Part shown: in pieces, positions 26,297 through 30,001 of the stretch
Layout of the letters: every line of letters begins with the position of its first letter
How positions within the stretch are numbered: position 1 is the first letter of the stretch
Virus record (IMG/VR): IMGVR_UViG_3300037264_006630
Coordinates: 32,001-96,000 of that record
Source: a virus
Direction: 5' to 3' (one strand)
DNA: 64,000 bases
Made by a program: the position numbers and the translations under genes
The notes under the pieces: model-generated
What the model was told of the DNA's origin: nothing
The model's input: only the letters and a program-made list of their open reading frames with translations
Databases searched by the model: none

Positions 26297-26673
26297 CCGC
26301 CCCTGCCGCCGACATCCCCGGCATCATCGCCAGGATCCGGGACGAGCTCGCCCGGTACGCCTGCGCGGGCCCGATCCCCATCACCTTCGAGGTCAGCCGC
26401 CACCCGACCTACGAGCGGGTCGTCATCACAGCGGTCGCCTCCGTGCCCGACGTGGACATCCACCGCGCGACAGGCGAGATGGTGATGCGCACGGTCCGGC
26501 ACACGCGCGTGATGAGCCCGCACGACCTGACGGAGACGGGCGAGGTCGTCGCGCAACTGGTGCGAGTGGCCTTCTCGCACGAGGCGGCGGAGTGGCTGAC
26601 CCGCGATGGGGTCGTGATCGACGACCGCCACAGGGCGCACCCGGCGCAGAAGACACCGTCCCCAACCGCATGA
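26293..26673 (+). CDS. conserved phage hypothetical protein
   Basis: HEAAEWL..DG..I.D.H motif; coupling. Confidence 0.55.
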   Translation: MTAPAADIPGIIARIRDELARYACAGPIPITFEVSRHPTYERVVITAVASVPDVDIHRATGEMVMRTVRHTRVMSPHDLTETGEVVAQLVRVAFSHEAAEWLTRDGVVIDDRHRAHPAQKTPSPTA

Positions 26674-27419
26674 CCGAGGTACCCATGACGACCGATCCGA
26701 ACCAGCCAACCTTCACCAACGTCGCCGCGTTCAAGTCGCTCTATGCCGACATCGGCCGCGACTTCTACGCCGTCTACTGCGCGAGCAGCGGCGGCAAGAA
26801 CTTCCAGGGCAATCCCTGTCCTGCCTGGGACGATCTACCGGAGGCCGTGCGGGGCCACTGGAGCGTGGTCGCCCACCGCGCCTTCGAGTGGGTCCACGAC
26901 GCGGTCAAGGTCCCGGCGGAGAGCCTGGATGGCCTGCCCGACCCGCTGGCGGCGCTGGCGACCTACCAGTCGTACGCGGGGCCGAGCGCGCCGGTCCCGG
27001 CCAAGGCCGCCGCTCGCGCGGCGATGAAGGAGAGGCTGCTGGCAGAGGCCGCGCTCGGGACCATGCGCTGCGGCCGACGCGATGAAGGCGGTCCGCCCTC
27101 GGACTCGCCGACCCCGGACCGCTGGCACGATCGCGACGGCCGCCTGGTCTGTTCGTACTGCGGCTCCGCGCGCCCGGAGGACTTCCTCGCTCGCGCCGCC
27201 GCTGGCGAGCCGGTGACGCCGACCGACAAGAACTACAAGGTGTACATCGGCAAGAACTACAAGGTGTACTTCCAGCACTTCGACACCGCGCAGCGCGACG
27301 AGCTCGTCCGGCTGGTCAACGCCGGGGAACTGGTCTTCGAGCACCCCGGCTTCTTCTACGTGACGCCGTTCTTCATGACCCGCGTGGAGCCGCCGCCCAC
27401 GGTGACGGTGACCCCATGA
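26670..27419 (+). CDS. hypothetical protein (possibly two fused domains)
   Basis: ORF track; CSYCGS motif. Confidence 0.55.
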   Translation: MTEVPMTTDPNQPTFTNVAAFKSLYADIGRDFYAVYCASSGGKNFQGNPCPAWDDLPEAVRGHWSVVAHRAFEWVHDAVKVPAESLDGLPDPLAALATYQSYAGPSAPVPAKAAARAAMKERLLAEAALGTMRCGRRDEGGPPSDSPTPDRWHDRDGRLVCSYCGSARPEDFLARAAAGEPVTPTDKNYKVYIGKNYKVYFQHFDTAQRDELVRLVNAGELVFEHPGFFYVTPFFMTRVEPPPTVTVTP

Positions 27420-27742
27420 GCGACGTCCCTACCCACCTGCGCGGCGCCACCATCATGACGCCCGGCGACCGCATCCGACACGAGATCGCCCGCGCCGACC
27501 GTCGTGCCGAGGAGAAACTGGCGGCGGCCTTCCCGACCGACGATGGACCGGTGACCGATGTGGAGGTCAGGTCGCTGCGGGAGTGGCTGGCCTCCTGGGG
27601 GTCGGGGCCGAATCGGTACGACGGCACGGGTGCAACGGTGCCGTTCGCCAAGGTCACCCTGATCCGCCTGCTCGACGAGATCGAGCGCCTCCGCGCGTCC
27701 ACGCCCGCGCCCGTCTGCGAGAACGGCGAGGACGGGGCCTGA
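27416..27742 (+). CDS. hypothetical protein
   Basis: ATGA coupling. Confidence 0.55.
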   Translation: MSDVPTHLRGATIMTPGDRIRHEIARADRRAEEKLAAAFPTDDGPVTDVEVRSLREWLASWGSGPNRYDGTGATVPFAKVTLIRLLDEIERLRASTPAPVCENGEDGA

Positions 27743-27749
27743 TCGGTTC

Positions 27750-27825
27750 TGGTACCACCTGCGGGACTCGAACCCGCACCACCCGGGTCTGAGCCGGGTA
27801 CCTCTACCAGTTGGGCTAAGGTGGC
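27750..27825 (-). tRNA. tRNA-Leu(CAG), short variable loop, CCA encoded
   Basis: GCCACCT/AGGTGGT acceptor, A73, CCCGG-CTCAGAC-CCGGG anticodon arm, GCGGG-TTCGAGT-CCCGC T arm. Confidence 0.9.
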
Positions 27826-27829
27826 GTCG

Positions 27830-27904
27830 TGTCGCGGGCGGGGGTCGAACCCGCACTGTCCGGTCCCTCAGACCGGTGCCTCCTGCCAATTGGGCTACCG
27901 CGAC
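27830..27904 (-). tRNA. tRNA-Leu(GAG), short variable loop
   Basis: GTCGCGG/CCGCGAC acceptor, A73, CCGGT-CTGAGGG-ACCGG anticodon arm, intact T arm. Confidence 0.9.
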
Positions 27905-27908
27905 GAGG

Positions 27909-27980
27909 TGCCGGCGAGTGGACTCGAACCACCAACTCGCGATTTTTGGGATCGCAGCCTCTGCCTTGGGCTACGCCGGC
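27909..27980 (-). tRNA. tRNA-Leu(CAA), short variable loop, C33
   Basis: GCCGGCG/CGCCGGC acceptor, A73, GCGAT-CCCAAAA-ATCGC anticodon arm. Confidence 0.8.
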
Positions 27981-28098
27981 CAGCTCGTCAGACGCACGAA
28001 CGACAACTCACGCCGATAGGCGGAGAAGTCGAAGTCGTGCGGAGAGCAATCGGCGGGTCACGTCACCCTGGTAGCACCGCGGCGCCGCCGTCGTCAAG

Positions 28099-28181
28099 CG
28101 GAAGGTGTAGGACTCGAACCCGCCCCACGAGGGGGCCACCGAGCTAGCAACCCGGGTCGCGCCCATGCGCGCTCACCTTCC
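28099..28181 (-). tRNA. tRNA-Ser(GCT), non-canonical 9/3-like fold
   Basis: G73, long variable arm, loop TTGCTAG, G8 pairs in an extended acceptor, 3-bp T stem, 5-bp D stem with 4-nt loop. Confidence 0.8.
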
Positions 28182-28186
28182 AGTCG

Positions 28187-28272
28187 CGGAGGCGTAGGGA
28201 GTCGAACCCGGCCCCTTGCGGGGCATCCTGTTTTCGGGACAGGCGTGGCCACCAACGGCCACCTCCACCTCC
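28187..28272 (-). tRNA. tRNA-Ser(CGA), non-canonical 9/3-like fold, C33
   Basis: G73, variable arm GCCCC-GCAA-GGGGC, CCTGT-CCCGAAA-ACAGG anticodon arm, 6-bp D stem, 3-bp T stem. Confidence 0.75.
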
Positions 28273-28344
28273 ATGCAGTGCGAGCCCCGAGAGGGGCTTC
28301 AAGAGCGACTGGATGAAGACGAGCGGCGGGTCACGAGCCGGACC

Positions 28345-28587
28345 CTACTCGTCCGAGCTCGGCGGCGCAAGCGCGATCTTGCAGGTCGTGCAACGAGCAC
28401 GGACACCGCCCCAGGACTCGGCCTCGTGGCCGCACTCGAGCTGGACGTGGTCGGGTGAGAAGATGGTCCCGGACGGCCGGAGCACTGCGACCACGCGGCG
28501 GAGTGGCGCACCACGTTTCTTCTTGCCGAGTCCGCCCGGCCCGATCGATCCGCCCTGCCGCATGTGCCTGTTGCTGATCCAACCCAT
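28345..28587 (-). CDS. small basic Cys/His protein
   Basis: AGGAGG SD; LECGH...CTTC. Confidence 0.6.
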   Translation of the reverse strand: MGWISNRHMRQGGSIGPGGLGKKKRGAPLRRVVAVLRPSGTIFSPDHVQLECGHEAESWGGVRARCTTCKIALAPPSSDE

Positions 28588-28838
28588 CGTGACCTCCTGT
28601 GGTGTAGACGGTGCGCGTTGCACTCGATCCACGTACCGGGCGTCTCACCCAGCGCTGGACATCGGTTGGGTGGCCTGATACGAAGGTCGGAGCTCGTCTG
28701 CCAACGGCAGAAGGAGTACCGGGGCCGTCACCGCAAGGCGGCGTCTCCGAACTAGGGTTGCTAGCCTCGTAGATTCTCGAGACGCCGCTGTAAACGGCGC
28801 GCCTTGGCCAGCGTGGTGAGACTCCACGGCAACCCACG

Positions 28839-29087
28839 ATGAGCGCCCCTGTGATGTACCGCCAGTGCGAGCTGCGCCGCGAGACGGCGACGGGAGTGGA
28901 GCGCTACGTCGCCTGGCTGCCCGCCGAGTTCCGCACCGGACGCATCGTGCGCATCGACGGTGAGGACTGTGTCTGGAAGATCGCGAGCCAGGGAGAAGCG
29001 CGCCCGGCCGAGATCGTCGAAGCGTACGAATCCAACGGACGGCGGGGCCTACCGTCAGTCTCGGGACACGCGCAGGAGATGGCGTAG
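28839..29087 (+). CDS. hypothetical protein
   Basis: ORF track; GC3-rich codons. Confidence 0.55.
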   Translation: MSAPVMYRQCELRRETATGVERYVAWLPAEFRTGRIVRIDGEDCVWKIASQGEARPAEIVEAYESNGRRGLPSVSGHAQEMA

Positions 29088-29312
29088 GTGAGCGAGGACG
29101 GCGACCCGCCTGACGAGGTGGCGGCGATGCGCGCCCGGAAGCATCCCGTGCTGGAGGATGATCTCCCCGGTGTCCCGGGAAAATTCGTGCTGCGTCTGCC
29201 CGGCTGCAAGCCGAACTACGTCTCCTCGTTCCGCGAGGACATGCGACGGGCAGACGCCTTCGTGGAGTCGTTCATGCGCGACTTCAAGAAGCCGCCGCGC
29301 GATCGCGCTTGA
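29088..29312 (+). CDS. hypothetical protein
   Basis: ORF track; abuts upstream stop. Confidence 0.5.
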   Translation: MSEDGDPPDEVAAMRARKHPVLEDDLPGVPGKFVLRLPGCKPNYVSSFREDMRRADAFVESFMRDFKKPPRDRA

Positions 29313-29398
29313 CTCCGGGCCCGGCCTTGGACTAGACAATGATTCCGGCCCGGCCGCCTGGGAGTCGCGCTCCAGGGGGCCGGGAACCACCGGGATGA

Positions 29399-29472
29399 TG
29401 CGGGGTAGAGCAGCCTGGTCGCTCATCGGGCCCATAACCCGAAGATCGGTGGTTCAAATCCACTCCCCGCAA
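29399..29472 (+). tRNA. tRNA-Met(CAT), initiator-like, C33, U1-A72
   Basis: GGG/CCC at the base of the anticodon stem, A11-U24, loop CCCATAA, T arm GGTGG-TTCAAAT-CCACT. Confidence 0.88.
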
Positions 29473-29486
29473 CTTGCCAAATGAAA

Positions 29487-29523
29487 GGACCGACGGCTGA
29501 TCACCGTCGGTCCGCTGTGTTTT
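29487..29523 (+). terminator. intrinsic terminator after tRNA-Met
   Basis: 10-bp perfect stem GGACCGACGG / CCGTCGGTCC followed by a T-rich tail. Confidence 0.65.
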
Positions 29524-29535
29524 CGGCCCATGACG

Positions 29536-29575
29536 TTGTCGCCCGCGACCGTTCGCGCGTACGGTGCGGCGCATG
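29536..29575 (+). promoter_or_regulatory. class A leaderless promoter
   Basis: TTGTCG-18-TACGGT-7nt-ATGAA, with TTCGCGCG. Confidence 0.6.
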
Positions 29576-30001
29576 AAGATCACCCTGACCCTCGACATCC
29601 CGGGACTGCCGTCACCCGACGCGCCCCACTCCTACCAGCTCGACGCGGCGTGCTTCAAGCTGCACGACATCGCCGACCCGGACGCCAAGCCGATCTACGT
29701 GGCCGCCACCGACAAGGACTTCGGCACCAGCGCGGTCGTCAGTGGCGACCTCCTGGTGACCGGCGAGGGCCACGTGGTCGACGGGTGCTGCCCGACCGAG
29801 GACGAGGAGTGCTGCGGCAACAGCAACTACTACGACCTCCGGGGCGCGACCATCAGCATCAGCCACGGCGAGTGCATCACCTCGGACGGCCTGGTCGCCG
29901 CTCTCAAGGCGGGTATCGCGCGAGCGTCGGCCGACGGTGCGGTGCGGCCTCGCTCCGGCTTCGACCCGCTCGTCGACTTCGCCCCGCCCAAGGAGACCTG
30001 A
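29573..30001 (+). CDS. acidic hypothetical protein
   Basis: ATG at class A promoter. Confidence 0.6.
   Translation: MKITLTLDIPGLPSPDAPHSYQLDAACFKLHDIADPDAKPIYVAATDKDFGTSAVVSGDLLVTGEGHVVDGCCPTEDEECCGNSNYYDLRGATISISHGECITSDGLVAALKAGIARASADGAVRPRSGFDPLVDFAPPKET

Follow-up and report, generated by a model that had tools for sequence, protein, structure and literature searches.

The window analysed here is a stretch of 64,000 nt, bases 32001-96000 of a 184,943-bp IMG/VR record (IMGVR_UViG_3300037264_006630) that is a complete virus genome with direct terminal repeats and about 69% G+C. A major head protein and a tape measure protein are recognisable among its products, and other protein matches are few. 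Default ARAGORN reports 7 tRNA genes in the whole phage genome; 5 of them, together with 1 more that is called only at a lowered threshold, lie at window positions 27750-29473 (Table 1). Two of these are the serine tRNA genes, Ser(CGA) and Ser(GCU), that the first-pass annotation had placed at 28099-28272, limits that prove exact, with both genes read on the minus strand. The three tRNA-Leu genes downstream, which are canonical 7/5 tRNAs with U8, probably belong with the two Ser genes to one transcription unit. In all three phage tRNA-Leu (74-76 nt) the variable loop is 4-5 nt long, the D arm is normal and base 73 is A (A73).

Table 1. Features of the phage tRNA region, in window coordinates
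Feature	Position	Strand	Remarks
tRNA-Leu CAA, GAG, CAG (in that order)	27750..27980	minus	directly downstream of the Ser genes; 74-76 nt, short variable loops
Anticodon loop of Leu(CAA)	27941-27947	minus	C33 for U33
Spacer, Ser(GCU) to Leu genes	27981..28098	minus	118 nt
tRNA-Ser(GCU)	28181..28099	minus	83 nt including G73; CCA not encoded
Spacer CGACU	28182..28186	minus	5 nt, between Ser(CGA) and Ser(GCU)
tRNA-Ser(CGA)	28272..28187	minus	86 nt including G73; CCA not encoded
Anticodon loop of Ser(CGA)	28231-28237	minus	CCCGAAA, C33 for U33
Interval, minus-strand tRNA cluster to Met gene	28273-29398		about 1.1 kb
tRNA-Met(CAU)	from 29399	plus	
Anticodon loop of Met(CAU)	29431-29437	plus	C33 for U33

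The 118-nt spacer has no Rfam match and no complementarity to either Ser anticodon arm, and within 26501-30000 the only complement to either arm is the gene's own opposite strand. The interval that separates the cluster from the Met gene holds no frame with the coding signature of this genome, no Rfam match and no sigma-70-like promoter; a simple scan found no promoter of this type around the tRNA cluster, and some 15 nt upstream of Ser(CGA) there is a GC-rich hairpin. No toxin-antitoxin genes were seen beside the Ser genes. A role of the locus as attP or integration site was considered and rejected, there being no integrase beside the Ser genes here or in the related phage contigs L013, L016 and L017. 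A SerRS core domain, a CCA-adding enzyme and an RNA ligase were all not found in the complete phage genome, and the phage therefore depends on host enzymes for these steps. RNA ligase and polynucleotide kinase form the classic tRNA repair pair, and genes for both adjoin an HNH gene in the tRNA region of the Streptomyces phage SparkleGoddess (L055, 81537-89599), which in having an RNA ligase differs from the window phage.

What the first-pass annotation had read from the sequence of the two genes is confirmed at every point. Both have G8 and G73, and the anticodons are CGA and GCU. The D stems are long: that of Ser(GCU) is CGCGC/GCGCG (5 bp, plus G10·A25), closed by an ATGG loop, and that of Ser(CGA) is GTGGCC(G)/(T)GGCCAC (6-7 bp), closed by TTGG. 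The variable arms are long too, each a 5-bp stem that is capped by GCAA in Ser(CGA) and by five nucleotides in Ser(GCU), and the T stems are short, GGG/CCC in Ser(CGA) and GGG/CCU, including one G·U, in Ser(GCU). Besides U8, the altered core lacks A14 and A21. Rfam alignments give both genes an anticodon stem of 5 pairs, with G·A at the sixth position in Ser(CGA) and C·U in Ser(GCU). A 7/5 fold does leave mismatched T stems: the ARAGORN drawings contain two mismatches for Ser(CGA) and one C·A plus one G·U for Ser(GCU), and in ViennaRNA a forced 7/5 fold is less stable than the free minimum by 4.3 kcal/mol in Ser(CGA) and by 6.0 kcal/mol in Ser(GCU). Left unconstrained, Ser(GCU) folds with 8 acceptor and 3 T pairs and with A74 unpaired, and Ser(CGA) with 7 acceptor and 3 T pairs around a 2x2 internal loop (G8, A9 / U77, A78). 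A 9-nt acceptor with one mismatch also fits both, as had been proposed, with the mismatch at a different site in each gene, internal in Ser(CGA) (G8·A78) and terminal in Ser(GCU) (A9·A74). Read layer by layer, Ser(CGA) has 7 acceptor pairs, G8·A78, A9-U77 and the 3-bp T stem, 12 layers with a 9/3 look, and its anticodon loop has C at position 33; Ser(GCU) has 8 Watson-Crick acceptor pairs, G1-C82 to G8-C75, then A74 as an unpaired layer facing A9 or C60, and then a T stem of G·U, G-C and G-C. ARAGORN calls Ser(GCU) by default and Ser(CGA) only at the lowered threshold. Both genes score better on the Rfam tRNA-Sec model than on the general tRNA model, with 40.5 and 29.8 bits, both below the tRNA-Sec gathering score of 47.

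In GenBank phages, blastn found matches to the Leu(GAG) and Met genes and to nothing else, and since no close phage relative was available there, relatives were sought by the tRNAs themselves. The neighbouring 275-aa protein had been tried as a lead and was abandoned, as it reached five distant viral loci, none with a tRNA; for the major head protein, a pattern method found no close relative in IMG/VR. A group I intron (L002:5716-5941, plus strand; Rfam, 92 bits) is present in a viral contig whose gene products include such a distant relative of this 275-aa protein. The search for the tRNAs used a DNA pattern over the T arm and the 3' acceptor strand, fixing CGGG...CC(N)UAC and leaving the 5' half, base 8 included, unconstrained. 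The 40 homologues that it yielded come from the tRNA arrays of Kofleriaceae, Haliangiales and other Myxococcota metagenome-assembled genomes (MAGs) and from four further phage contigs, so that with the two window genes 42 sequences could be compared. Single-sequence minimum-energy folds were too noisy for one-third of the homologues, and anchored pair counts were used instead.

Applied to a plain MAFFT alignment of all 42, RNAalifold predicts an acceptor of 8 bp and a T stem of 3 bp. The eighth acceptor pair, between base 8 and the base 3' of the T stem (alignment columns 8:91), forms in 41 of 42 sequences, as GC in 35, AU in 5 and CG in 1; the exception is Ser(CGA), with G8·A78 followed by A9-U77. 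All 42 have the three standard T pairs, and the 3' strand from the T loop to base 72 is always 12 nt long. The two outer T-stem pairs of a 7/5 fold, on the other hand, can form in only 8/42 (the outermost) and 7/42, against 93 and 94 of 97 non-Ser tRNAs from the same arrays, which sets the array Ser genes apart from the tRNAs around them. The fourth T pair of an 8/4 fold is standard in 7/42 and C·A in 35/42, a frequency inflated by the search, since the pattern fixes C·A at that layer. In eight Ser genes that adjoin pattern matches and were not themselves selected by the pattern, the eighth acceptor pair is present in all eight and an outer 7/5 pair is possible in one. The D stem begins at position 11, after a 2-nt linker, in 38/42; it has 5-7 bp and a loop of 3-6 nt (4 nt in 26/42), usually an NNGG tetraloop, and occurs in 26 distinct versions, all of them fully complementary. 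G73 is present in 40/42. A covariance model, R1, built from the 40 homologues with the window genes left out, gives Ser(CGA) 77.1 bits and Ser(GCU) 70.7 bits, within the member range of 70-78; canonical tRNA-Ser score 25-40 bits (Myxococcota core genes) and 24-42 bits (phage genes), and the resemblance is therefore not due to chance. In this the first-pass annotation is supported: the homologues keep a non-canonical fold with compensatory changes, and the two genes are not decayed copies of 7/5 genes.

Its assignment of a 9/3 cloverleaf fares less well. The genes are indeed of the allo-tRNA kind, tRNA-Sec-shaped and non-canonical, but, judged by pairing across the family, the architecture is 8/4 with a tRNA-Sec-like D arm, because the eighth pair is kept with covariation in 41/42, whereas the ninth acceptor pair of a 9/3 fold forms in only 3/42. 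That both genes are true 9/3 allo-tRNAs, with nine acceptor and three T pairs as the selected architecture, is accordingly improbable, if still the best placed of the rivals to the main reading. The idea draws on the ease with which either gene can be drawn with a 9-nt acceptor, one mismatch and a 3-bp T stem, and on A9-U77, which is a real pair in Ser(CGA). Yet the ninth layer is A·A or C·A in the rest of the family, and A·A in Ser(GCU) itself; in 6 of the 8 pattern-unselected array genes the same position instead pairs with the base before the three T pairs, making a standard fourth T pair; and the arrangement of Ser(CGA) is found in 1/42, its ninth pair sitting behind a G·A mismatch.

Within the 8/4 family, Ser(GCU) is by its alignment a typical member, 8/4 with C·A. 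One ambiguity arises from the base five positions before the T loop, which is G in Ser(GCU) and in five close relatives; with C75 as its partner, this G would permit a 7/5 fold containing one C·A. The 8/4 reading is preferred because this G pairs in the variable stem in 6/6, because the D stem begins at 11 and not at 10, and because sister Ser(GCU) genes carry C in place of this G. Ser(CGA) is the sole sequence of the 42 in a different register. Against its relatives in contigs L017 and L013, it is short of one acceptor base pair and carries two inserted bases, a G that follows the old G8 and a C on the 3' side of the T stem; after this shift the stack still has 12 layers, and the T stem is three G-C pairs. 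Its anticodon and variable stems differ from those of the relatives by compensated changes. Together, the matched indels and the compensated changes look like selection for shape and not like decay, and Ser(CGA) is, on this comparison, a derived single case that is formally 9/3 with an internal G·A. As the only copy with a shifted stack, and with C33 instead of U33, Ser(CGA) could be impaired. The C33 substitution is seen also in Leu(CAA) and Met(CAU) of the phage, and the CCCGAAA loop is found again in three Ser(CGA) homologues from Myxococcota arrays (L022, L028, L030), so that it is no one-off defect.

The pattern search of IMG/VR found four further phage contigs. L017, the closest relative, has the same Ser(CGA)-Ser(GCU) order, the same 5-nt spacer and an identical D arm, and tail tube and tape measure genes adjoin its Ser pair; L013 also has a Ser(CGA)-Ser(GCU) pair, L016 (a near-complete record of 40 kb) has Ser(CGA), and L015, a 371-kb phage contig, has several 8/4-like Ser genes. 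Beyond the Ser pair, no tRNA was detected in L017 by ARAGORN (locus) or by the Rfam tRNA model (whole record), and in the L016 record Ser(CGA) is one of two credible tRNAs, with one other match passing the Rfam threshold. That L016 and L017 retain Ser genes when hardly any other tRNA, or none, was detected in them is a hint that this serine supply has some special value. Among prokaryotes, with one genome searched per species, the pattern found 26 loci, most of them in MAGs labelled Kofleriaceae, Haliangiales, Polyangiaceae, Myxococcaceae or Deltaproteobacteria. The homologues there lie in dense tRNA clusters, some of them arrays that pack as many as 26 genes into a few kb, others small clusters of two to four Ser genes. 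R1 has matches in at least 3/151 genomes of the class and at least 2/41 of the family, counts that are lower bounds, the pre-filter having scored 29 or 110 of the thousands of candidates per genome. When 190 phage ORFs were compared by tblastn with every tRNA-bearing locus, only two weak matches came up, and the arrays are therefore not prophages of the window phage. The notion that the phage had itself remodelled its serine tRNAs must be given up: the shape is inherited, and the Ser genes are, as far as their relationships can be read, a horizontally spread lineage that is also present in other phages and in Myxococcota accessory tRNA arrays.

Two of the Myxococcota genomes, G001 (10 Mb) and G004 (8.5 Mb), carry the 8/4 family beside dispersed core tRNAs that are canonical. 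The core of each includes four tRNA-Ser in which U8 is present, the D stem is of 3 bp and its loop large, and the T stem has 5 bp; long-variable-arm core tRNA-Leu sequences come from G001 only. Each of four genomes has one full-scoring SerRS gene (G001 with an additional weak, sub-threshold match), and in every genome in which the canonical Ser cluster was placed the SerRS gene adjoins it, lying within a few kb of all four canonical tRNA-Ser genes in G001 (C102:153520-158979) and G004 (C5:76566-79223). The 8/4 Ser genes of G001 belong to an array of 24 genes that has reverse transcriptase and HNH endonuclease genes at its flanks; those of G004 form a four-gene Ser cluster beside recA, and the same genome has a separate 26-gene array without Ser genes. 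The Myxococcota arrays also contain short tRNA-Leu genes like those of the phage. The host of the phage is probably a bacterium of the Kofleriaceae or Haliangiales (Myxococcota), the whole basis for this placement being tRNA identity of 75-88%, similar G+C and near-identical codon usage.

Several other features of these loci deserve mention. The short Leu type fills the Myxococcota arrays and is found at L019, L029, L030, L034, L054 and L055; it is annotated as tRNA-Leu in Streptomyces phages, and the core Leu genes of G001 are long-armed. Of the non-Ser tRNAs in the arrays (L019, L020, L022, L025, L026, L029, L030 and L034), 37/97 lack U8 (C in 13, A in 13, G in 11) and have canonical T stems, and the Asp genes of L054 are among the array tRNAs with 6-bp D stems and tetraloops. 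By their sequences, then, the Myxococcota tRNA arrays as a whole encode irregular tRNA cores. A Kofleriaceae array also includes a tRNA with a CUA (amber) anticodon (L034:4940-5013, plus strand), called tRNA-Pyl by ARAGORN. Its acceptor end, T arm and G73 resemble those of tRNA-Asp of neighbouring arrays, and for this reason it may be a natural amber suppressor.

The reading that we favour, and hold to be distinctly probable, is that Ser(CGA) and Ser(GCU) are working serine tRNA genes of the (8/4) tRNA-Ser kind of allo-tRNA. What the sequences show is the fold (8 acceptor pairs, a 2-nt linker, a 5-7-bp D stem with an NNGG tetraloop, and 3 T pairs with one further layer that is usually non-standard), the compensatory changes by which it is conserved, and where it occurs; from these we infer expression, charging and decoding along the following lines. 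The Ser genes would be transcribed with the three downstream Leu genes as one minus-strand unit, and the primary transcript would be cut by host RNase P and 3' processing enzymes, with CCA added by a host enzyme because none is encoded. SerRS does not read the anticodon, and the single SerRS of the host would charge both tRNAs by way of the long variable arm, G73 and the G1-C72/G2-C71 acceptor end. EF-Tu could carry the products, since the acceptor/T stack keeps 12 layers, and the tRNAs would decode UCG and AGC/AGU. These are not minor codons: among the Ser codons of the phage, UCG makes up 44%, AGC 29% and AGU 2% (UCG plus AGC/AGU, 73-75%), the three Leu genes read 97% of its Leu codons, and the Myxococcota loci have the same Ser and Leu codon preferences. 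With anticodons that match the commonest codons, the phage tRNAs thus duplicate the main Ser and Leu decoding of the host and fill no rare-codon gap. What the phage probably gains is its own stock of Ser (and Leu) tRNAs for the codons it uses most, at times when those of the host are depleted or attacked.

The first-pass annotation had gone further, suggesting that structurally altered Ser tRNAs may escape host tRNA-targeting nucleases or modification-based defences, and it is possible that the altered core, without U8, A14 and A21, shields them from a tRNA-directed nuclease. An extended version of this idea, that Myxococcota and their phages keep a second, differently built set of the two long-arm tRNA classes (8/4 Ser with a tRNA-Sec-like core, and Leu lacking the long arm) as a back-up that the nuclease does not recognise, is offered tentatively and is on balance unlikely. 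The nuclease would in that case be a host defence or phage-borne. Such a back-up would explain why precisely the Ser pair persists in related phage contigs where other tRNAs are few or undetected, why the five-gene cluster of the phage is Ser and Leu only, and why its tRNAs serve the commonest and not the rare codons. As a side possibility, the long D stem may make these tRNAs substrates of host SelA.

Another use of the genes has to be weighed, in which the RNAs are made and mainly do not decode, acting as decoys or sponges for tRNA-targeting toxins of the host, as binders of tRNA-Sec enzymes via the long D stem, or as regulatory RNAs. Precedent exists in that many allo-tRNAs are inactive in translation and linked to toxin-antitoxin loci (Mukai et al., PMC5389517) and that the long D stem of allo-tRNAs binds the SelA and PSTK domains (PMC7590224), and true tRNA-Sec, at 73-75 bits, is present in two of three Myxococcota genomes searched. 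We nevertheless give this reading rather low odds, a little below those of a selected 9/3 architecture: the anticodons serve the two commonest Ser codons, every serine identity feature is retained and both the T loop and the anticodon loop are normal, and the Ser genes are clustered with Leu tRNAs, with no toxin-antitoxin genes seen beside them.

Less probable still is that the genes are decaying, functionless copies of ordinary 7/5 tRNA-Ser genes. The resemblance that invites the idea is real, because canonical tRNA-Ser of other phages (L011, L012) share the 3' end of Ser(GCU), with a GUGGG/CCUAC T stem and a one-base difference; Ser(CGA) has C33 and a G·A inside its acceptor helix, and both genes fall below the Rfam thresholds. 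Decay, however, is hard to reconcile with 40 phage and bacterial homologues that keep the non-canonical fold through compensatory changes in acceptor, anticodon and D stems, with matched indels that preserve the 12 layers of Ser(CGA), with the C33 shared by homologous Ser(CGA) genes in the three arrays noted above, or with retention in two related phage contigs in which few or no other tRNAs were detected. That the genes are selenocysteine tRNAs or part of a recoding system is already contradicted, since the tRNA-Sec model, although the best Rfam match of both, scores them below its gathering threshold and far from the true Myxococcota genes, the anticodons are CGA and GCU and not UCA, and the acceptor/T stack has 12 layers and not 13.

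The working serine tRNAs proposed here are not of a new kind, and the picture drawn in 2017 is unchanged, such 8/4 serine tRNAs having already been reported from phages. New here are the connection with accessory arrays of Myxococcota, the way in which the family stands against core tRNAs that are canonical and a SerRS that is single, a C·A layer that recurs, and one copy that has been re-registered by matched indels. What results is a natural (8/4) serine tRNA family with cognate anticodons, represented by 42 sequences with covariation from at least five phages and from bacterial arrays. It provides a clean setting for asking how a non-canonical tRNA core is used and how it is tolerated by RNase P, SerRS and EF-Tu, and also whether phage tRNAs with an altered core resist tRNA-directed defence. 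There is a practical lesson too, an annotation gap, as the Rfam general tRNA model and default ARAGORN miss part of the 8/4 Ser genes. At its threshold, the Rfam model misses those in G005-G007 (the records of L013, L016 and L017): the L016 copy scores 28.6 bits, and the L013 and L017 pairs give no match. Routine annotation therefore under-counts such genes.

Among known systems, canonical 7/5 tRNA-Ser are set apart by their U8, 3-4-bp D stem with a large loop and 5-bp T stem, which have no counterpart in the phage genes. Bacterial tRNA-Sec (RF01852) resemble the phage genes, with an 8-pair acceptor, a 6-bp D stem with a 4-nt loop, a long variable arm, G73 and charging by SerRS (predicted for the phage Ser tRNAs); they differ in their 13 layers (8/5), in the UCA anticodon and in score, 73-75 bits for true genes against 40.5 and 29.8. 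With regard to genomic setting, Tran and colleagues are said to have described long tRNA gene arrays of bacteria in 2015. Passages of Santamaria-Gomez et al. (2021, PMC8421152) describe long accessory tRNA arrays that are patchy in distribution and often adjoin homing endonuclease genes. Being dense, of 20 or more genes, HNH-adjoining and shared with phages, the arrays of those passages match the Myxococcota arrays, and the patchy distribution of the 8/4 genes fits horizontally spread arrays so described; in the same passages no mention was found of 8/4 Ser tRNAs or of Leu tRNAs without a long arm.

The nearest relatives in form are the allo-tRNAs. The (9/3) allo-tRNAs of Acidobacteria, such as Silvibacterium bohemicum (PMC5389517; PMC7590224), share with the phage genes the long D stem and variable arm, serine identity and a 3-bp T stem, and the phage Ser(CGA) can be drawn as 9/3. 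Unlike the phage tRNAs, whose anticodons are cognate, they have non-serine or stop anticodons and are missense or nonsense suppressors, and the ninth pair is unconserved in the phage Ser family. The best counterpart is the (8/4) tRNA-Ser that Mukai et al. [quoted passage not shown] Judged by the published description, the likeness covers the acceptor branch of 12 layers, apparently split 8 + 4, the long tRNA-Sec-like D stem with its tetraloop, the long variable arm, G73 and the serine anticodons. The differences are that the fourth T position of the phage family is mostly C·A, which leaves effectively 8 + 3 standard pairs, that the anticodon stem of the window genes has 5 pairs and not 6, and that the carriers are high-GC phages and Myxococcota arrays, as against the alpha-proteobacterial phages of the paper.
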